A stretch of 64,000 bases of DNA, from the sequence record MF402939; one strand, given 5' to 3'. Positions 2,170 through 52,946 of the stretch are shown in pieces. How positions within the stretch are numbered: position 1 is the first letter of the stretch; every line of letters starts with the position of its first letter. A program made the translations under genes and the position numbers. Source of the stretch: Escherichia phage OSYSP. The notes beneath the pieces were generated by a model. That model worked only from the letters and a program-made list of their open reading frames with translations, was not told the origin of the DNA and did not search any database.

Positions 2170-2174
2170 AACCA

Positions 2175-3152
2175 ATGAGAATATTATTTAGTGCTGATCA
2201 TCATATCAAACTAGGACAGGATAAAGTTCCAAAGGAATGGCAGAAGCGTCGCTTCCTGATGCTAGGAGAACGGTTAAATGATATATTCCATAATCATAAC
2301 TGTGATCTTCATATTGCTGGTGGTGATATACTTGATGTTGCCGACCCGTCGTCAGAAGAAATAGAACTGCTTGAACAGTTCATGTCAAGACTTGACCATC
2401 CAGGCAAAATCTTTACTGGAAATCATGAAATGTTAACTAAAACCATTTCGTGTCTATATCATTATGCGGGGGTTATTAATAAAGTAACTAGTGGGAAGTG
2501 GGAAGTAATTACCAAACCATATCGTTCCCCTGAATTTGATATTGTTCCGTATGATGAAATCCATAAGTCTAAGTGGAAACCATCTGAATCAAAACTATGT
2601 TTCACGCATGTTCGTGGTGAAATCCCTCCACATGTAAAACCAGAAATTGATCTAACTAAGTACAACTGTTATGATACTGTAATTGCTGGCGATTTACATT
2701 CTTATACTAATAGCCAGACTATCGGATCTACTAGACTCCTCTACCCAGGGTCTCCATTAACTACATCGTTCCATAGAGAACGCACAAAAGGTACAAATGG
2801 TTGCTTTATCATTGATACCGACACATTAAAAGTAGAATGGATTGAACTAGGTGATTTACCACAACTGATCCGTAAAACAATCGGAGCAGGTGAAGAGATG
2901 GAACCTAGTGATTATGATCGTGTAGTCTACGAAGTTACTGGTGACGTTGTTCAATTAAAGTCTATCAAAGACTCTGATTTATTAGATAAGAAGATTAACC
3001 ATCGAGTTACTAAAGATGCTAAGTTAAATCTTGTTGATCTTGATATGTTGGGCGAACTTGAACTTTACTTCCGTGAAGTCGAGAAGCTATCTCAAGGCGA
3101 CATTGATAGAATCTTGGCTAGAGCTGCGAAATATGTCAAAGATTACAATTAA
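2175..3152 (+). CDS. SbcD/Mre11-like metallophosphoesterase nuclease
   Basis: Calcineurin-like motifs ADHH, GGDILD, GNHE, GDLHS; overlaps and precedes a Rad50-like ATPase. Confidence 0.85.
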   Translation: MRILFSADHHIKLGQDKVPKEWQKRRFLMLGERLNDIFHNHNCDLHIAGGDILDVADPSSEEIELLEQFMSRLDHPGKIFTGNHEMLTKTISCLYHYAGVINKVTSGKWEVITKPYRSPEFDIVPYDEIHKSKWKPSESKLCFTHVRGEIPPHVKPEIDLTKYNCYDTVIAGDLHSYTNSQTIGSTRLLYPGSPLTTSFHRERTKGTNGCFIIDTDTLKVEWIELGDLPQLIRKTIGAGEEMEPSDYDRVVYEVTGDVVQLKSIKDSDLLDKKINHRVTKDAKLNLVDLDMLGELELYFREVEKLSQGDIDRILARAAKYVKDYN

Positions 3153-16017: not shown

Positions 16018-19000
16018 TTAAGAATTTCCTAGTGTTTTTAGGCTAGCACCATTCTCATTCAGAGCTAGTTCTACTGCATCCCTCAGAGCACCGCTATTAC
16101 TAGAGGCGAACTCTCTAAAACTAGCAGCATCCATAGCACTAATATTCAGGATGATAGGTCTTCCTGAGATTGAATTAGAGGAATTTTTTAACTCATCATT
16201 AGGTGTAGCTTTCATAGGAATCATAGGTGTAATTACTTCTGTACCATGTTCTCCCATCTGGTAGCTAACCCCTGGGTACATATTACCACCTTCGGCACGA
16301 GGCACAAATGAATTAGCATTACCAATACCTTGATCACCACGTATATAGGATAGTTCCCCAGCGTTAGCAGACATAGATACATCAATGTTCTTCTGACGCT
16401 CTCCAAGAGTTAAATAACTAGTAGTATCCGCTCCAGAATCTGCAATACTTGACATACTAGAGGCAGAGGATGCCTGCGCTAATGCCAGAGCACCTGCTAA
16501 TCCTGCCGCTACCATCAGAGGGATAGAGAACGGGTATGGTACAGCTGTTGCTGCCTGCATAACTGCTACTGCAGTTTGGATGATAATCTGCTTCTTAGCT
16601 GCATCTTGTTGAATCTTCAGCTTTTCAGCTTCTAGCTTCTTCAATTTAGCTTTAGATGCTTCTGATTTACCATCACGTTTCTGCTCCGCTGCGATAGCTG
16701 CATCAATAGCACTAACCTGCTGACTAGTACTGTATTGAATCATAGAAGCCACAGTTTGCATACCAGAAGCAATCAAGGAAGTAGTATCTAGAGATCCCTG
16801 AGAGAACTGAATCATAGCATTAGTTAAGTTACCCATACTTTGTGCTACTGCAGTTGCTTCAGAATTTAGCTCAGATAGCTTAGAGATTGCTTGGTCATAA
16901 GAAGCCATTCTATTTTGCATATCAGCAAAATCTTTATCTTCTCCAGATAATCCCGTTGTAGGAGTGTACACAGCACCTACAGAGGATCCTACCTGTTGTT
17001 GCATTTGAGCATTACGTTGCGCCGTTAAAGCAGACATTTGAGCCCTTGTCTTAGCTATTTCAGCATTCCAGCGCATTTGCTCGTTAGCATTACCTTTGGT
17101 AAGTTCTTTCATCTGAGTATAAAAATCTAACTGCATTTCCATTTTTTGCATTTCCCCTGCCAGAGGGAACATGGAAGTTAGAGTATTTTCAAAGGCTTCT
17201 TGCCTTTTACTGGTCATTTCAGCTTGCTGATCCTGACGGAATTTCCATATTTCACGTTCAATTTGAGCTTGAGAACGTCTAGACTGTTCAGCCTCTTTCT
17301 GTTTATCAGCCTGTTTTGTATACCATTCGTACTTCTCTTTTTCAATGGTCAATTCAAGATTTAACTGTGCTAGACGATACTGAGTATCTGTCATAGTACG
17401 GTTATTTAAGAGAGCTATCTCACGATCTACACCAAGAATTTTATCTGTGTAATCCTTGACCTTCTTCTGAGCTTCCATACCCTGATTAGTAAGTTTAAGT
17501 TTCTCCAGCTGAATTTTTTCAATTTCTTTCTCAACAGCTTTATTTCCCTGGTTTGTTTGAAGAACACGGCGTAAAGCAGCTTCTTGCTCTTCTAACTGTT
17601 GGAGTTCTAAACGTCTACCAGCTTCCTGAGCCTTTTCCTTATCCTTAGTTTGATTATACACATCAGCTATTTTCTGTTGAACTGCTAACTGATTTTTAGT
17701 TTCATTACCAGTTAGTTTAACATACTCAGATAGAGCCTGAGATGCAGTTTTCATTTCAGACAGGGTGTTATAACCCAGGTTAAGGTTTTTAACATATTCA
17801 TCGGCACTCTTACCGGTACCTAAGGATAGAGATTCTATATTTTTTATAGCATCTGCCAAAGTAGCACTAGTTTTAGCAGCAGTATCTGTATTATGAGCAA
17901 CGTTCTGTATATCATTAGCTAAGTCACTAGCCGTTTTCTTAGTCTGATTGTACGCTTTCTGCTGCTCAGTTAGTCCTTTTAATACAGTAGAGTTAAAATC
18001 GTATACAGCATCAGGATCAGTAGTATCTCTCTGTAGATTAATTTGCTTCTGAAACTCTGGACTAGCCTTTGCAGCAGCGGCACCAGCAGCTTGATACGCT
18101 GATTTCCAAGCATTGAGATTCTCTGTAGAATCCTCTACTTCCTTACCAAGTCTAGTTACTTGTAGACCCATAGCTGCAGTTTCTGCTACAAATTGCTTAT
18201 TGGCCTCCGAAGCACCTGCTGCTGCAAGACCAACAGGAATACCTTCACCAACTTGACGTATAGCTAATTTTGTATAGAAATCTGCTTGTTCCATTCGTTT
18301 ATCAAACTCAGATTTTAGCTTATTACGCTTATCAAGAGATTCCTTATACATATCTAGAGCTTTATTATAGCCTTCTTCAGAAGCAGCTAAACTTAAAGCA
18401 ACAGCACCAACGTTGGTAGGGTCTATCTGTCTATTAGTTTTTTCTTGGGCCCTAGCTGCTTCAGCAGATATAGAAGCCTGAGATGTATAAAATACTGTGT
18501 TGATAGCATCAATTACTGGCCCTAAATACTTAGCAGCAGCTTGTTGTATTTTTCTTAGTGCAGCATCTGCATTAGCAGCAAATTGCTCCCACGGAGTTGC
18601 ACGTAGTACTTCATCTAGGTAGCCAAAACGCTTAGTAGATTCAGCAATTACCGCGTTAGCGTATGCTTGTTGCTTCTGGAAAGTGGTAAGACTATTAACA
18701 TTATATGTTATACCTGTGTTTGCAGCATTTAACTGTTTAACATAATCAGCGTATGCATCATTAAGACGGATGGTGACACCCAGCTCATCCAGAAGTTCGA
18801 TTTCTTGTTTAGATACGCCCTTAATTACACGGTTAAGTGCATCAGTCATATCAACGCCAAGAACAGCAGCCGCACGACGAGCTACTAAACCAAATTTATT
18901 AAGTTGTTCGGCATCAAATCCATAAGCAGATGCTGAAGATGCCTGTCTCATTGCTTCCTCAAAAGAAATAGCATATCCAGCAGCTTCTTGTAGTGATCTA

Positions 19001-35561: not shown

Positions 35562-37226
35562 TTACGCGAAAAATTTACCGTTTTTAAAGTCGATCAAAGT
35601 GCGCTGACCGTTTGCATAGGTAATAACATGCGTTTGCGTCCAGCTTGACGCGCCAACGTTGTAACCCATGTCCAGACTACCAGCTACGCCAGCGGTATAT
35701 ACCCCGCCGTAAATGCTTGCCGTATGAGTATGCCCCGTGTTTAATTTGCCCAATTTCTTAAACTGTTTAGGATTGCCACGGCTGCCGTTAATGCCATTGT
35801 GACCGTGTACGCCGCACTCGATGCCTGCAATTTTAAATGATTGGTCAGTTGTTAGGAAAATGGCGTTAAATTCACAACCTGCAACCTTACGCAGCGCATA
35901 ATCAAGCACGTTGAAAGTATCGTCATGATCACCGATTGCCGCGTAAATTGCAGCATTTAGGCGGTGATATAGTTCCGCGTTTGCGGGATCGTCTTTAATG
36001 TTAGCATTACGATCATCAAGCCAACGGGATAGCGCTAAATCGTGGTTTGATTCCACGATGATTGTTTGAGAAAAATCGCGCTCCATTGACTCCAGCACGC
36101 GCCCCGTATCGATGAGATCATCCAGAACCTTATCACGTCCGGCGGCGTATTGTTTTGCTAGGAATACACCCGAAGCGCGGTTGTGATGGTTGCGGGATGT
36201 AAAATCATGCACGTCATGAATAAACTGATATTTAGGCTTGAGAATATCAAGCAAGCTATTTTCGCCAGCCCATGACGCAACGGCGCAATCGTCATCTAAT
36301 TTTTCGGCGTGAATATCGCCATATTGCAAGCCTAAAACATGCCCCGATGTTTCATAACATCCGGCGGGAGTGGCGCAAATATTCAAATCGTAAAACACGC
36401 CGCTTTCGTCCATCGTTTCAAGCTGGCGAACAAAAAATTCTCCGTCTTCGTCAAACTCAACAACAAGCGCACCGAAATTATGCAGCGCCTCGGCCTTTTG
36501 TCCTGCTTTCTGCTGGATGTAATTTTTTAGGGTTGCCGTTCCAGTTGAATACATACGACGCACTACTTCACCTTTTAAAGCTGGCACGCTTTCGGCGGTA
36601 ATTTTAGCGTGACCAATTGCCAGACCTTCCAGATTAAGCGCCGTTGCAGTTTCAGCGAATCCAGAAAGCGGATAATCTGCGGTTGGCAAAACGTTAATTT
36701 CAGCCATGAAAGCAAAACGGCGGTTATTTAAAAACACGTTTTTATTGCAGATATATTTGTCAAATGCGGAATCATATTTTATTCCTTCTGCACCCTCGCC
36801 ATTTTGAAAACCGTTTTTGTTATAAATAAACTTGCTAACCAGCAAATCAGCGCCGATATATTTAGCAAATTGCTCCAGTGAGGCTAAAAAGTTTTTATGC
36901 GGGAAAGTATTATTCTGAATCGACGTAATAATAAAGCGTTTACCCTGCTTTACTTCCCATTGCTCAACCGTGCTAGAAACAATCCCCGCCGCTTCTGGAC
37001 GCTCATCGTTTTTAATGGCTTTTGCTACTTTCGCCGCTTTCGGTTTAGCTGGTTTATTTGCTTCCAACCAGTCGCAGATAGCGGTCGAGTGTTTTGTTGT
37101 ATCGTAGACCGCTTTTGATATATCGTCGCAGACCTCCAGTTTAGTAGCGCGCAGACGTTTACCATAGAAATTAAAGTCAGCGGCCATTTTCAGGATAACG
37201 GTTTGTTTTTCTGCGGAAATAATCAT
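35562..37226 (-). CDS. A1: A1-like pre-early protein with metallophosphoesterase motifs
   Basis: 554 aa (T5 A1 about 556); calcineurin-like motifs GDIH, HDVHD, ESNHD, GHTH; sits beside an A2-like gene. Confidence 0.75.
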   Translation of the reverse strand: MIISAEKQTVILKMAADFNFYGKRLRATKLEVCDDISKAVYDTTKHSTAICDWLEANKPAKPKAAKVAKAIKNDERPEAAGIVSSTVEQWEVKQGKRFIITSIQNNTFPHKNFLASLEQFAKYIGADLLVSKFIYNKNGFQNGEGAEGIKYDSAFDKYICNKNVFLNNRRFAFMAEINVLPTADYPLSGFAETATALNLEGLAIGHAKITAESVPALKGEVVRRMYSTGTATLKNYIQQKAGQKAEALHNFGALVVEFDEDGEFFVRQLETMDESGVFYDLNICATPAGCYETSGHVLGLQYGDIHAEKLDDDCAVASWAGENSLLDILKPKYQFIHDVHDFTSRNHHNRASGVFLAKQYAAGRDKVLDDLIDTGRVLESMERDFSQTIIVESNHDLALSRWLDDRNANIKDDPANAELYHRLNAAIYAAIGDHDDTFNVLDYALRKVAGCEFNAIFLTTDQSFKIAGIECGVHGHNGINGSRGNPKQFKKLGKLNTGHTHTASIYGGVYTAGVAGSLDMGYNVGASSWTQTHVITYANGQRTLIDFKNGKFFA

Positions 37227-37322
37227 ATTAATAAAACTCCATTAAAGGGATTAAAAACGTTTGTTATTGGCAAATATTGCCAAATATAACGCCTTGAATA
37301 ATAGGCGTTATAATTTGCAACA

Positions 37323-47852: not shown

Positions 47853-48224
47853 TTAATGAAGTTGTTTACCACTTCTTAACATAGTGGCCGTTTCCATAAG
47901 ACCTAGCGTAGCATCACGCTTATTGATCTGTTTACCAAGTTCATCAGTACGTTTACTGATGTAAGCATTAATAGCCATATTCATAGCTGTAGCGAGATCT
48001 TCTTTGGTTATCTCTTCATCGTCTAAAGCTAATTTAGCCAAAGAATCAAATGTGCTAGAGAGTCCTATAAGATCTGAGGTTTCTCCCGCCAAAATAGGAT
48101 TAATATTATCTACTGTTACTTCTAGCATGGAGTTGACAATATCTTCACCGTCTATTAGACCAGTTTCAATATTACTCTCCCACTCCTTCATCTGCTCCAA
48201 TAATGGATTTTTCTTTTCTGTCAT
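47853..48224 (-). CDS. Hypothetical early protein (about 123 aa)
   Basis: Start placed at MTEKKNP with AGGAAA RBS; the track ORF extends to 48290. Confidence 0.45.
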   Translation of the reverse strand: MTEKKNPLLEQMKEWESNIETGLIDGEDIVNSMLEVTVDNINPILAGETSDLIGLSSTFDSLAKLALDDEEITKEDLATAMNMAINAYISKRTDELGKQINKRDATLGLMETATMLRSGKQLH

Positions 48225-48633
48225 GGTAGAGGTTTCCTGTGTCAGTCGGTAAGAAGGATGATTGCGTTTTAGGTGGATGTTGCTTAGCAATCCAGTTAAG
48301 AATCAGCACGCGACTAGGAACAATATCGGTGTTATACCAAAAATCGTGAACCCATTGACGAGCATCTTCAAACTTACCAAATTTATATGCTTTCTTAAAC
48401 AATTCAAATCCAAAACAATCTGGTGTAAAGTCTACTTCGCGATATTGAATTACTTTAGAACCAGTTAGGTCTTGGATCGCTGCATTAATTTCTGTATGCG
48501 AGAATTTTGTTTCATGAAACTTATTAAAGAATCGGTAGTTGAAGCGTCCGTTCGTTTCGACAAACAACTGGATGAAGAGATCGTTAAATTGGTTATCAAA
48601 CCAGTAATTCTGTAGTTGTTGTAGTGCTGTCAT
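48172..48633 (-). CDS. Hypothetical early protein (153 aa)
   Basis: ORF in early array; 3' end overlaps next gene. Confidence 0.45.
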   Translation of the reverse strand: MTALQQLQNYWFDNQFNDLFIQLFVETNGRFNYRFFNKFHETKFSHTEINAAIQDLTGSKVIQYREVDFTPDCFGFELFKKAYKFGKFEDARQWVHDFWYNTDIVPSRVLILNWIAKQHPPKTQSSFLPTDTGNLYHDRKEKSIIGADEGVGE

Positions 48634-50262: not shown

Positions 50263-50694
50263 TTACCAATCGTTAACAACGCCGGAGAACTCAGAAGCAA
50301 AAACTTTTTCAAATTTCTCTGCAATTTCAGGATGATCTTTGCAGATCAGCTCAATACAGGCTTCTGGAGCCATTCCTTCATCTTCAGGATCACCATAGTA
50401 TTTATCCCAAAGATCATCAGGAATGATATGCTCCGCCAAATCTTGGAAAGATATTAACTGATAACGTTCTGCTTCCTCGGGGATAAGGATTTCACAAAGA
50501 TCTTTATCTATATCGCTACGATAATCCGCAATTAATAAGGCATTGCAAGCATGACATTCCCAGACCATCAAACGTTCAGAGATAGGATTAGACTTATCCT
50601 GAACGTAAGACTGGAACAAGGTTCGGAAAGTTGCCTTAACTTGTTCAAACTTATCTGCTGCTGCGAAAACTAGAGCTTTATCAACTTTGTTCAT
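50263..50694 (-). CDS. Hypothetical early protein (143 aa), acidic
   Basis: ORF in early array. Confidence 0.45.
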   Translation of the reverse strand: MNKVDKALVFAAADKFEQVKATFRTLFQSYVQDKSNPISERLMVWECHACNALLIADYRSDIDKDLCEILIPEEAERYQLISFQDLAEHIIPDDLWDKYYGDPEDEGMAPEACIELICKDHPEIAEKFEKVFASEFSGVVNDW

Positions 50695-50861
50695 TTTGAT
50701 TCCTTCTCATCAATTTATAAAGTAATTATACAGAAACTTAAGCATTTTAGCAAATAAAACTTTCAATTAAAATGCCTAATCCTGTGCCAATAGCAATACA
50801 AATGATTATAAGTATTGCTATCGCCTGTATGATTCGTTTAATAATAACCTCAGCTATATAC

Positions 50862-51455
50862 TTAGACATTTATATCGCCACGCAATACAGCAGCTACGTC
50901 TTCTCCTATTTGTAATACCTCGCCGGTAGTACAATTAACCACTCTATCGTAACTAGTAAACTTACCAGACACAATATCCTCTAGTGGAATTGGAGTTCTA
51001 CTCATTTCAAATGAGACATTAATATAACGTGGATCACGTAAAGAAGTAGTATGTACATGTCCGTGAATATTTAGTTTGCCACGAAGTTCATTAGGGTGCA
51101 AAGGGCAGTGAGATAGCCAAAACTTTTTGCCACCTCCAGTCTGTTTGCCTAGAGCTTGAATATCGTCATAAACTTCCGCTAAGTCCCTAATACTCAGTCC
51201 TTGACGCTCCGCATCATGATTACCCATAATGAGTTGATTAGGGACATTGTGGATAACCGACTTTAATTTGGCCAGACCTTCACGACCTACTGCAATATCT
51301 CCTAGCAAAATAAGTTTTGTTCGTTTACCAATATGCTTGGATAAAGTATTTAGAATATACTCATCGTGCTCTTTCATGTTCTTAAACCACGGACGGAAAC
51401 GTAGTGCTCCAGGGTGGTCTAAGTGCAAGTCTGACCAGAATTTAACCTTCATCAC
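50862..51455 (-). CDS. Calcineurin-like metallophosphoesterase
   Basis: Motifs SDLHLD, GDIAVGREG, GNHD, GHVH. Confidence 0.65.
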   Translation of the reverse strand: MMKVKFWSDLHLDHPGALRFRPWFKNMKEHDEYILNTLSKHIGKRTKLILLGDIAVGREGLAKLKSVIHNVPNQLIMGNHDAERQGLSIRDLAEVYDDIQALGKQTGGGKKFWLSHCPLHPNELRGKLNIHGHVHTTSLRDPRYINVSFEMSRTPIPLEDIVSGKFTSYDRVVNCTTGEVLQIGEDVAAVLRGDINV

Positions 51456-51739
51456 TTACTCCTTTTTTGTATTAAATTATCAATCCAGGTAGTTAATACT
51501 CTAGTTTTAAACTCCTCGGGAGTCTCTCCTTCCTTAAGGTCTACCTCATTAAGGTAGGTAGTAAGCCTTGTTTCTATCTCTATTTCAGCAGGAGAATTAA
51601 AACAAAAATTGACTGCTATTCCAGAATATATTACTCCGGTATCTCCTTTGACGAAAGCATTAACTAATGCTCTCCAACGAAGGGCATCAATACGCATTGC
51701 TCGTAATTCTTCTTGTACTTCTTTCATTCTATCATTCAT
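51452..51739 (-). CDS. Hypothetical early protein (95 aa)
   Basis: ATGA overlap with the downstream gene. Confidence 0.45.
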   Translation of the reverse strand: MNDRMKEVQEELRAMRIDALRWRALVNAFVKGDTGVIYSGIAVNFCFNSPAEIEIETRLTTYLNEVDLKEGETPEEFKTRVLTTWIDNLIQKRSK

Positions 51740-52614
51740 TAAAGAATCCTCTGTACACCACAGCTATCTTCTCGAAGCGTGGTAAATGTTGTGATTTTCC
51801 CAGTTTCATCATTAACTTGCGCAACCGTCAACTGCCCGTTGAAAACACCGCCAGTATCAAGATAAACACGGTTCTGGTATAAAATCGGGTAAGGAACCCC
51901 AGTGTGTCCGTGGAACACAAAGTCTATCCCTTTAACTTCGGGCACTTCTACCATGTATTTTTCTTTAAATCCTGCATAACGCTGGAAATACGGATGTTCC
52001 TCACCGTTTTTGGACAAGTATAAACCTATTTCTTGGATTACATCTCGATCCCATAAGTATGGCTCAACATGGTATCCAGGATGGTCATGTGGGTCTTCCT
52101 TAGCTGCTTCTACTTGTGCAATAAGGCTATCCCATACTGGGGTTTCTACTTCGTTACCGCAGTCTTTGTATGTAAAAGGTACACCACCATGAACAACACC
52201 AAACTTCTTACCACGATGTCTAACAGTTAGGAATACTGGCATTTTTTCAGCCATATCTTCGGCAATATTTTTAATGGTGTCTGCATCTAGTTCATTCATG
52301 GCCCACATACCACCATTATACATCCAATTAGCCCAATCTCCAACAATCATAAATTGATCATGATTACCACGGACACTGATAAAACGTGGATTATATAGGA
52401 ATTTGGCTAAAACTTGTAAATTTTGTGTGCCTCGGTCAATTAAGTCACCAACACATACTACACAATCTTTTTTGCTATTATATCCAGCTAATTTCAGCGC
52501 ATCTTCTAGCAAATCGTTGCATCCATGAATATCCCCAACGAAAAACAAGTTGGCCTCATCCGGCACTACTATTGTTTTATGCACATTAAATTCTTTTTTC
52601 ATAATTATTCCCAA
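51739..52614 (-). CDS. Ser/Thr protein phosphatase-like metallophosphoesterase
   Basis: Motifs GDIHGC, GDLIDRG, GNHD, HGG, GH arranged as in PPP-family phosphatases. Confidence 0.7.
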   Translation of the reverse strand: MGIIMKKEFNVHKTIVVPDEANLFFVGDIHGCNDLLEDALKLAGYNSKKDCVVCVGDLIDRGTQNLQVLAKFLYNPRFISVRGNHDQFMIVGDWANWMYNGGMWAMNELDADTIKNIAEDMAEKMPVFLTVRHRGKKFGVVHGGVPFTYKDCGNEVETPVWDSLIAQVEAAKEDPHDHPGYHVEPYLWDRDVIQEIGLYLSKNGEEHPYFQRYAGFKEKYMVEVPEVKGIDFVFHGHTGVPYPILYQNRVYLDTGGVFNGQLTVAQVNDETGKITTFTTLREDSCGVQRIL

Positions 52615-52850
52615 ATAACAGTTAAAATAGTTGTGCCATACTCATTAGATAATTGGAGAGTATAACCCTCTTTATTGAGGGCTTTTATAGCTTCATAACT
52701 AATTTCGTCACGATTAAGCTGTACAAAAGAACCTCCAATCTCTACAGAAGATACTATCCTCCGCTTAACCCATCTATACGTTTTCTTTCGGCTCTTAAGG
52801 GACGCGGCTCTATTTATCCTAGCTAAACGTTTTGCTTGCTCTGCTAACAT
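52605..52850 (-). CDS. Hypothetical early protein (81 aa)
   Basis: ORF in early array. Confidence 0.4.
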   Translation of the reverse strand: MLAEQAKRLARINRAASLKSRKKTYRWVKRRIVSSVEIGGSFVQLNRDEISYEAIKALNKEGYTLQLSNEYGTTILTVIWE

Positions 52851-52908
52851 TTAATCCTCCTATCAATCTATACAAATATTATACCAAAATTTTTAGCAAA
52901 AAGCAAGT

Positions 52909-52946
52909 AAAATAAAAGCCTGATCAGCTAAGATCAGGCTTTGTTT
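52909..52946. terminator. Bidirectional rho-independent terminator
   Basis: AGCCTGATC-loop-GATCAGGCT with A-run upstream and T-run downstream. Confidence 0.6.

Follow-up and report, generated by a model that had tools for sequence, protein, structure and literature searches.

The 64,000-nucleotide stretch of Escherichia phage OSYSP analyzed here (sequence record MF402939; hereafter, the window) contains a conserved early-gene segment of T5-like phages with genes for two unrelated enzymes of the binuclear metallophosphoesterase (MPE) superfamily. Our preferred reading, to which we assign a probability of about 60%, is that one is a broad phosphomonoesterase of the T5.035 type and the other a nucleotide phosphodiesterase of the COG4186 type, both encoded by early accessory genes that do not form a functional pair. 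For the larger enzyme, the likeliest activity is that of a broad-specificity, Mn2+-dependent phosphomonoesterase, the substrates of which would be phosphoproteins and possibly also phosphates of nucleotides or RNA ends. The smaller would most likely be a single-domain, metal-dependent phosphodiesterase acting on nucleotide substrates, for example 2',3'-cyclic nucleotides or 2',3'-cyclic phosphate ends, as published for its distant relative, D29 Gp66. Both genes would be transcribed early from one sigma-70 promoter, as accessory functions outside the core. What is demonstrated here is the family membership of both enzymes, the integrity of their active sites, the order of the genes, and the exchange of the cassette.

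A conserved early locus of T5-like phages

The window derives from a Tequintavirus (T5-like phage) with approximately 95% identity to Salmonella phage phB7 and E. coli phage FFH1. The region of interest matches 442 phage records and is 95.6% identical to phB7. Two intact MPE genes, each identified by matches far beyond chance, lie on the minus strand within positions 50862-52614, and they belong to different subfamilies (phrog_246 and phrog_547), in keeping with the initial annotation of this interval as encoding two distinct MPEs. The gene order is that of T5 T5.033-T5.038, and both genes are found in the T5-like early region within a single transcription unit, which bears out the early position that had been proposed for them. 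The pair is already known: the T5 GenBank records AY543070 and AY692264 name both genes as such, as do those of hundreds of relatives, and both genes are real, intact, and ordinary. The two are not alone in having the MPE fold, as the window also includes an SbcD-like gene (2172-3149) of the same fold and a homolog of A1 (35565-37241), a predicted metallophosphatase in the literature. The three proteins of the locus gave no matches to PADLOC defense models.

All features of the unit are on the minus strand. Upstream, a terminator-like hairpin (52915..52942; an 11-bp stem, then a T run) ends the thioredoxin unit and corresponds to the annotated T5 terminator at 18607-18637. A probable sigma-70 early promoter for the unit, read from the sequence (52878..52906; TTGCTT, 17 nt, TGgTATAAT), lies within the window equivalent of the T5 promoter annotation 18550-18624; it was missed in a consensus scan because its -35 hexamer matches at just three of six positions. 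The first gene (52605..52850) encodes an 81-aa homolog of T5.036 (93% amino acid identity) and carries the PHROG label "major head protein," which does not plausibly fit such a small early protein. This ORF stops 2 nt ahead of the ATG of the larger MPE gene (51739..52602), which encodes a 287-aa, lambda-phosphatase-like (PPP-type) enzyme orthologous to T5.035. Between the two MPE genes is a 95-aa ORF (51452..51739; phrog_14979) that forms part of a swapped cassette, followed by the gene for the 196-aa small MPE (50862..51452), a divergent T5.034 allele of the AQ_1665/COG4186/phrog_547 family. The ATG of a 40-aa hydrophobic ORF (50747..50869; phrog_21849, equivalent to ORF32 in FFH1) overlaps the small-MPE stop codon, and the following unit starts at a homolog of the T5 promoter P-F30 (50725..50753; TTGCTA, 17 nt, TATAAT; 10/12 matches), the -10 hexamer of which coincides with the P-F30 annotation when coordinates are mapped.

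The longest ORFs of the large and small MPE genes start with TTG and GTG, respectively, but ATG starts are likelier in both cases. The 291-aa ORF given in the initial annotation exists, but the likely start of the large gene is the ATG at 52602, which yields a protein of 287 aa, the same length as T5.035. The small gene probably starts at the ATG at 51452 (196 aa), with AGGAG located 6 nt upstream.

The larger enzyme is a lambda-type PPP enzyme

The 287-aa protein matches Pfam Metallophos (PF00149; 5.6e-16, 60 bits) and phrog_246, "NinI-like serine-threonine phosphatase" (9.5e-93). By sequence, it matches lambda phosphatase (1G5B) at 1.9e-32, and the profile of its family aligns with the full length of the lambda enzyme (8.3e-61; positions 4-240 on lambda residues 3-217), the next profile matches being ApaH-like proteins at approximately 1e-20. 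Lambda phosphatase is also the top PDB fold match (TM 0.80-0.82) of the AlphaFold model (pLDDT 92.9). The protein has the five motifs through which the binuclear MPE superfamily binds two metal ions (DxH/GD/GNH[DE]/H/GH), here GDIHG at residues 23-27, GDLIDRG at 52-58, GNHD at 79-82, H138, and GH at 232-233, and it also has W184-x-R186 (287-aa numbering). The two-metal site is complete (D24, H26, D53, N80, H138, H233), R57 and R186 are in place to bind phosphate, the acid pair H81/D56 is present, and the catalytic residues, including both arginines, are invariant in 41 homologs. The signatures GDxHG, GDxVDRG, and GNH[ED], the two arginines (with lambda R53 and R162 as the reference residues), and the full-length homology identify the protein as a member of the lambda phosphatase/bacterial PPP group. 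Among NCBIfam models, the PrpA type ranks first (100 bits), ahead of PrpB (80.5), ApaH (59.8), and Pnkp (38.2). The first two scores fall far below the equivalog cut-offs of 326 (NF008516) and 332 bits (NF007425), and the enzyme is a relative of E. coli PrpA/PrpB, not an equivalog. It belongs to the lambda phosphatase/PrpA/PrpB branch of PPP enzymes; the PPP-like character previously ascribed to it is upheld by the 1G5B sequence, NCBIfam, profile, and fold matches.

T5.035 (orf5c; T5p034, "NinI-like serine-threonine phosphatase") is 93.4% identical to the large enzyme over all 287 residues, and the two share their neighbors (T5.036 upstream, then thioredoxin T5.037) as well as the positions of promoter and terminator; we observed no difference of note. 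In common with the lambda Ser/Thr phosphatase (NinI) and E. coli PrpA/PrpB, the large enzyme has every metal ligand, the general-acid histidine, and the two arginines that bind phosphate. However, identity to lambda phosphatase is only about 30%, and the large enzyme is 66 residues longer, with additions on either side of the W-x-R motif (approximately 25 residues in the H138-R186 interval and 24 in the R186-H233 interval) and a C-terminal extension of approximately 19 residues. These three additions are confined to T5-like phages, and such clade-specific insertions could alter specificity. A PPP-type sequence does not by itself establish that the substrate is a protein, and lambda phosphatase itself also cleaves diesters, hydrolyzing bis-pNPP as well as 2',3'-cNMPs.

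The last of these activities would also fit an unlikely alternative, in which the 287-aa enzyme acts chiefly on nucleotides or RNA, hydrolyzing Ap4A or Np4N RNA caps in the manner of ApaH or healing 2',3'-cyclic or 3'-phosphate RNA ends in the manner of Pnkp. Ap4A hydrolases and the Pnkp RNA-end phosphatase are among the closest sequence relatives of the large enzyme, and ApaH-type enzymes and the phosphatase domain of C. thermocellum Pnkp come closest after lambda phosphatase in both sequence and structure; nevertheless, the corresponding models score far under their cut-offs (59.8 vs 176 bits for NF001204 and 35.5 vs 222.85 bits for TIGR00668, both ApaH; 38.2 vs 750 bits for TIGR04075), and only the phosphatase module matches the Pnkp model, which is defined by kinase, phosphatase, and ligase modules and a score of at least 750. 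Motif III is GNHD, as in the ApaH matches, whereas lambda phosphatase has GNHE; conversely, motif II has the PPP form GDLIDRG, whereas that of E. coli ApaH is GDLVARG. Two of the additions fall within the stretch that runs from the motif IV His to the motif V GH, the region in which the cap domain of ApaH is inserted, but the alignments with ApaH entries in the PDB are restricted to the N-terminal part (to profile position 184 in the best case and 16-84 in most) and stop short of the C-terminal half, where most of the added sequence sits. Finally, no RNA ligase partner was noticed nearby. A broad phosphomonoesterase is the reading that we retain for the large enzyme.

The smaller enzyme belongs to the AQ_1665/COG4186 family

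The 196-aa protein matches phrog_547, "phosphoesterase," at 7.1e-57 over residues 1-190, and scores 22.0 bits against Pfam Metallophos (PF00149), barely over the cut-off of 21.5. It, too, has the five motifs of the binuclear MPE superfamily (D8-x-H10, GD at 51-52, GNHD at 77-80, H115, and GHVH at 131-134), which are invariant in all 38 homologs. The motif set GDxH...GNHD...GH had been assigned to both enzymes; this is correct for the large one (GDIHG, GNHD, GH), but motif I of the small one is SDLH, with the rest of the set present. The family profile matches AQ_1665 (1XM7) at 4.9e-22, followed by Mre11/SbcD and a P. putida MPE at 0.002-0.035, and the structural model (pLDDT 94.1) superimposes on 1XM7 with TM 0.68-0.71 (Foldseek 8.8e-10). 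The BFVD neighbors are COG4186 phage phosphoesterases. The small enzyme is thus a member of the COG4186/AQ_1665/phrog_547 family and lies outside PPP. The suggestion that the two MPEs have different substrates seems reasonable from these groupings, as the small enzyme falls with AQ_1665/COG4186 and D29 Gp66, and lambda phosphatase ranks 49 among its structural matches.

The family comprises approximately 1,400 phage records across many hosts. T5.034, a "phosphoesterase" (COG4186), shares membership of phrog_547 and a location downstream of the phosphatase and upstream of P-F30, but is only 51% identical in amino acid sequence and has 173 aa rather than 196, the window protein having an extra C-terminal tail; moreover, T5.034 is not preceded by the additional 95-aa ORF. 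The closest solved structure, that of the Aquifex aeolicus structural-genomics protein AQ_1665, is from a cellular organism, has 26% identity to the small enzyme, and brings no functional information because AQ_1665 has no known activity. The one assayed family member is D29 Gp66 (identical to Lakes gp72), which is the true mycobacteriophage relative of the small enzyme. Gp66 has 199 aa and falls in the same PHROG (4.1e-52, compared with 7.1e-57), with all MPE motifs aligned, although it comes from an unrelated phage and host and has 28% identity (pairwise E 2e-11). The activity published for Gp66 is that of a 2',3'-cyclic nucleotide phosphodiesterase (Dutta et al. 2014, cited in PMC12287305). 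The substrates suggested for both MPEs are drawn by homology from distant relatives (30% and 28% identity).

A second mycobacteriophage MPE, A10ZJ24 Gp48 of the cluster-A type, is a DNA-degrading anti-defense protein (PMC12287305). A link to Gp48 was drawn initially because the small enzyme matches mycobacteriophage "phosphoesterases," but was rejected, as Gp48-type proteins belong to phrog_221 and have no similarity to it. The residues mutated in A10ZJ24 Gp48 (D10, D41, and A113) are the ones that Bxb1 gp47 carries at these three positions. Bxb1 gp47 matches phrog_221 at 4.5e-116, and BLASTP against the window proteins gave E = 9 and 1.9, which places the latter outside phrog_221.

We consider it quite unlikely that the small enzyme is a DNA nuclease directed against host or competitor DNA, similar to Mre11/SbcD, P. 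putida MPE, or Gp48, or that it destroys 3',5'-cyclic nucleotide immune signals. Its weak neighbors beyond AQ_1665 (Mre11, SbcD, MPE 6NVO, MJ0936, and GpdQ) are indeed nucleases and diesterases, but the nuclease similarity is marginal (E 0.002-0.035, TM at most 0.4), and a weak match to the NCBIfam model of the PdeM ligase-associated endonuclease (TIGR04123; 1.2e-5) reaches 24.8 bits where the cut-off is 150. In favor of this idea, cAMP is a reported substrate of D29 Gp66, which is also reported to be toxic (PMC12287305). Against it, Gp48 is in the separate phrog_221 family (E = 9 against the window protein), and A1 already covers host DNA degradation in T5. A phosphodiesterase acting on nucleotides remains our preferred assignment for the small enzyme.

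The two genes are neighbors by synteny

The window and T5 lose DNA homology over exactly 50873-51734, a segment that corresponds to the small-MPE cassette. The number of ORFs between the two MPE genes ranges from none in T5 to one in the window and in My1, five in locus L005, and seven in locus L004, and the small gene is missing from two of 14 T5-like IMG/VR loci (L019 and L020). Because of this variable spacing and the absence of the small gene from these two loci, we rejected an obligate gene pair; the enzymes are neighbors by synteny and not a functional pair. The site downstream of the phosphatase contains a 173-aa MPE, the 95-aa ORF together with the 196-aa MPE, or unrelated small ORFs. 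We considered whether the small enzyme has a conserved partner or regulator in the 95-aa ORF but rejected this, because the ORF is limited to close relatives: it is 93% identical in FFH1, absent from T5, and had no homolog in the more distant T5-like loci, and other small ORFs occupy its position in My1, L004, and L005. The idea that the 81-aa T5.036-like ORF is a constant partner of the phosphatase is only partly true: My1 (36% identity), L004, and L005 have homologs, whereas in L019 the phosphatase follows another ORF.

In a T5 CRISPRi-ART knock-down screen, T5.034 and T5.035 were both scored "Not Fit," that is, dispensable. This is weak evidence of dispensability because the screen recovered chiefly early-infection genes. 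T5-like phages are absent from the coverage of the transposon essentiality preprints.

Discussion

Published accounts of the phosphatase contradict each other, presenting it either as the late-transcription gene C2 or as a dispensable gene. Classical T5 gene C2 is needed for late transcription, and a C2 mutation is said to map to the ORF of a putative 32-kDa Ser/Thr phosphatase, with a probably indirect effect on RNA polymerase (PMC7472727). If this mapping is right, the phosphatase would be a regulator rather than an accessory protein and would control the early-to-late switch by taking phosphate off a component of transcription, either of the host or of the phage. The gene for the RNAP-binding early protein gpT5.026 (48172-48633), about 3 kb away, fits this idea, which we nevertheless regard as improbable: the mapping is given without data or reference, none of the three T5 GenBank records labels the phosphatase gene C2, a size of 90 kDa was described for the classical C2 product, and T5.035 knock-down caused no fitness defect, in conflict with a regulatory role.

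The initial annotation raised the possibility that phage phosphatases reverse host phospho-signaling, including kinase-based defenses, but this found no support, as our literature search returned no biochemical or genetic experiment on T5.034, T5.035, or close homologs, and nothing specific on phage phosphatases versus kinase-based defense or on MPE-type anti-CBASS or anti-Pycsar enzymes. We give little credence to one or both enzymes being protein phosphatases that erase Ser/Thr-kinase-based defense or stress phosphorylation in the host, for which the PPP-type active site of the large enzyme, the apparent dispensability of both early genes on the laboratory host, and the swapping of cassettes beside the phosphatase gene, common for host-interaction genes, could be cited, given that no T5-like phosphatase was linked to a defense system in the literature searched, the small enzyme is unlike PPP, and the phosphatase is a conserved backbone gene, usable as a T5-like phylogenetic marker, not a patchy accessory gene.

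As it stands, the presence of the two MPE genes at this locus matters little; the annotations date from the deposition of the T5 genome, and T5.035 already serves as a typing marker for T5-like phages. A long shot would be that the site just downstream of the phosphatase is an exchange site for accessory cassettes whose COG4186 enzymes are counter-defense phosphodiesterases and, separately, that the phosphatase is C2 and times late transcription. If so, the host immune products removed by the COG4186 enzymes would be 2',3'-cyclic phosphates or cyclic nucleotides. The locus bears on the question of whether nucleotide-directed phosphodiesterases for host takeover or counter-defense are routine cargo of large virulent phages.

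Results

A close-packed series of ORFs fills the minus strand between 50700 and 52950; upstream it is bounded by a hairpin (52915-52942) that terminates the preceding thioredoxin unit. A promoter-like site (TTGCTT, 17 nt, TGgTATAAT; 52906-52878) lies just after this terminator. It is followed, all on the minus strand, by an 81-aa T5.036 homolog with a very basic N-terminus directly upstream of the phosphatase gene (52605-52850), the large metallophosphoesterase (MPE) ORF (51739-52614 in its longest form), a 95-aa ORF (51452-51739), the small MPE ORF (50862-51455 in its longest form, 197 aa), and a 40-aa hydrophobic ORF (phrog_21849; 50747-50869), whose ATG overlaps the small MPE stop codon. 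After a second promoter-like site (TTGCTA, 17 nt, TATAAT; 50753-50725), the next transcription unit begins with the homolog of T5.033 (50263-50694, minus strand; Pfam DUF7020, 4.4e-45), a conserved early protein. Start and stop codons overlap or almost touch along the whole run (TAATG at 51739, ATGTCTAA at 50869), a layout typical of a single transcription unit, and the terminator and both promoter-like sites match the positions of a terminator and two promoters annotated in T5. From the DNA, the large and small enzyme genes are predicted to be co-transcribed early.

The 291-aa ORF of the initial annotation is present; however, on our reading of the sequence the better start is the ATG at 52602, which gives a 287-aa protein with the same MKKEF N-terminus as its homologs. 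For the small gene, the ATG at 51452 (196 aa) has an AGGAG 6 nt upstream. The 40-aa ORF is annotated in E. coli phage FFH1 and absent from the annotation of the T5 records, despite DNA conservation there. The name "major head protein" that the 81-aa ORF bears in public records derives from phrog_7354; for an early protein of this size it seems to be an error copied from record to record. In Pectobacterium phage My1, too, a weak homolog of this ORF (36% identity) lies ahead of the phosphatase gene.

Over 3.5 kb, the region shares 95.6% identity with Salmonella phage phB7 and about 94.7% with FFH1 (Demerecviridae, Tequintavirus), and the 442 phage records that match it are nearly all T5-like phages of Salmonella or Escherichia. 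At the amino acid level, identity is 99% to T5.033, 93.4% to T5.035 (the large enzyme), 92.6% to T5.036, and 99% to both the T5.037 thioredoxin and T5.038. Because these neighbors are nearly identical in protein sequence and keep the same order, the locus corresponds to the early region of T5; further upstream come genes for endolysin and holin, another feature shared with T5. Some 3 kb away from the phosphatase, the window encodes (48172-48633, minus strand) a protein 100% identical to gpT5.026, known from published work to bind E. coli RNA polymerase and to take part in the early-to-late switch.

Assignment of the larger enzyme to the PPP family, as first proposed, was right. It matches Pfam Metallophos (5.6e-16) and phrog_246, "NinI-like serine-threonine phosphatase" (9.5e-93), and lambda phosphatase (1G5B) is by far its best match among solved structures, both with the single sequence (1.9e-32) and, over the full length, with a 41-sequence profile (8.3e-61). 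Its AlphaFold model, built from an alignment, is confident (pLDDT 92.9) and also finds lambda phosphatase as the top PDB match (target-normalized TM 0.80-0.82). Eleven positions are invariant in the 41-homolog alignment: D24, H26, D53, D56, R57, N80, H81, H138, W184, R186, and H233. The aligned lambda residues are D20, H22, D49, D52, R53, N75, H76, H139, R162, and H186, a numbering confirmed in part on the sequence alignment. The large enzyme carries the complete lambda-phosphatase catalytic apparatus. It exceeds lambda phosphatase by 66 residues: about 25 are added between H138 and R186, about 24 (among them a conserved HPYFxRY stretch) between R186 and H233, and about 19 at the C-terminus. 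We saw these three additions in T5-like phages alone; proteins of the next relatives, encoded by jumbo phages and on Acinetobacter chromosomes, measure 215-255 aa.

A rival reading, ApaH- or Pnkp-like specificity of the large enzyme for nucleotides or RNA, has indirect support from the next sequence matches among solved structures, ApaH-type Ap4A hydrolases (about 1e-20) and the phosphatase domain of C. thermocellum Pnkp (about 3e-19), ahead of eukaryotic PP1, PP2A, and PP5 (about 1e-9). The NCBIfam order agrees, with PrpA-type (100 bits) above PrpB-type (80.5), ApaH (59.8), and Pnkp (38.2), all far under the equivalog cut-offs.

The small enzyme matches phrog_547, "phosphoesterase" (7.1e-57), and scores marginally over the Pfam Metallophos threshold. 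All 38 homologs keep residues D8, H10, H13, G51, D52, G77, N78, H79, H115, P117, H119, H130, G131, H132, and H134. Among solved structures its sole clear relative is Aquifex AQ_1665 (1XM7; profile E 4.9e-22), which also matches the confident model (pLDDT 94.1) by Foldseek (8.8e-10, TM 0.68-0.71). The remaining structural neighbors (LpxH, MJ0936, Mre11/SbcD, a P. putida MPE, and GpdQ) are remote (TM <0.5), and lambda phosphatase ranks 49th. T5 record AY692264 assigns T5.034 to COG4186, and predicted viral structures agree, the neighbors coming from many large virulent phages and being COG4186-type "phosphoesterases." By tblastn, 1,406 phage records contain a family member, among them phages of Staphylococcus, Listeria, Vibrio, and Acinetobacter as well as mycobacteriophages. 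Both enzymes of the locus are intact binuclear metallophosphoesterases, and they belong to different subfamilies.

The only assayed member of the small-enzyme family that we traced is Gp66 of mycobacteriophage D29, which is 100% identical to Lakes gp72, falls in phrog_547 (4.1e-52), and shares 28% identity with the small enzyme (pairwise E 2e-11). Dutta et al. published it as a 2',3'-cyclic nucleotide phosphodiesterase, and PMC12287305, which cites that work, gives its substrates as monoesters, diesters, or cAMP. Cyclic-signal degradation, or DNase activity, by the small enzyme is a rival reading with indirect support, from this relative and from the remote resemblance to Mre11/SbcD.

Another mycobacteriophage MPE, A10ZJ24 Gp48, is reported to degrade host DNA and defeat defenses (PMC12287305). 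We rejected it as a relative: its mutated residues (D10, D41, A113) match Bxb1 gp47, which belongs to phrog_221 and showed no similarity to either enzyme of the window, so the Gp48 result is not transferable.

Linkage of the two genes is loose. T5.034 and T5.035 abut in T5; one ORF separates the pair in the window and in My1, and five and seven do so in two divergent metagenomic relatives. The ORFs lying between the pair in My1 and in these two relatives show no homology to the 95-aa ORF of the window. Among 14 T5-like IMG/VR loci drawn via the phosphatase, 12 have the small enzyme downstream. In the other two, the stretch that separates the phosphatase gene from the T5.033 homolog (L019, 8864-9450; L020, 8842-9452) is taken by unrelated small ORFs, one of 118 aa in one contig and two of 77 and 122 aa in its counterpart, so this slot is variable. 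DNA homology to T5, 91-94% on either flank, is lost exactly over 50873-51734, which spans the 95-aa ORF and the small enzyme gene; T5 instead has a 173-aa MPE allele, 51% identical to the small enzyme, and lacks the 95-aa ORF. Here one cassette has been cleanly swapped for another in genomes that are nearly identical elsewhere. The spacing, the 14 loci, and the T5 comparison gave no sign that the two enzymes act together. Thus, the phosphatase, used as marker "orf5c" in typing T5-like phages, is a stable backbone gene and the small enzyme occupies an exchangeable slot.

Discussion

That two MPEs lie at this locus, as initially annotated, is borne out by motifs and by Pfam and PHROG matches for both. 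The finding restates what the public annotation of a well-known phage has long said: T5 records AY543070 and AY692264 already list both genes as putative phosphatase or phosphoesterase. "Two" also undercounts the MPE-fold proteins of this phage, since the window further encodes an SbcD-like nuclease-subunit MPE (2172-3149, plus strand; Pfam Metallophos 1.3e-6, phrog_100) and a homolog of pre-early gene A1 (35565-37241, minus strand; phrog_1745). No Pfam domain was detected in the latter; according to a 2026 preprint, A1 is a predicted metallophosphatase and carries out the degradation of host DNA.

Our literature search found no experiment on either protein individually. As a rival reading, the large enzyme could be the regulator C2, a classical gene linked to late transcription that one source maps, without data, to a putative 32-kDa Ser/Thr phosphatase ORF (PMC7472727). 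This indirect identification is hard to reconcile with a genome-wide dCas13d knock-down of T5 (CRISPRi-ART; PMC11879866, supplementary file 16), in which T5.035 was "Not Fit" (fitness -4.78), a label for genes whose need on the laboratory host could not be detected, although the sensitivity of the screen is uncertain because it recovered mostly early-infection genes. T5.034 was also "Not Fit" (-3.90), and the C2 label is absent from the phosphatase gene in all three T5 records. A role against kinase-based defenses, also raised initially, is speculation on which our evidence is neutral. Lambda phosphatase itself cleaves bis-pNPP and 2',3'-cNMPs, so a PPP-type sequence is insufficient to establish a protein substrate.

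We favor a large enzyme that would act as a Mn2+-dependent, broad-specificity phosphomonoesterase on phosphoproteins, and perhaps also on nucleotide or RNA-end phosphates. The small enzyme would be a phosphodiesterase whose substrates are nucleotides, for example 2',3'-cyclic phosphates, and both genes would be accessory.
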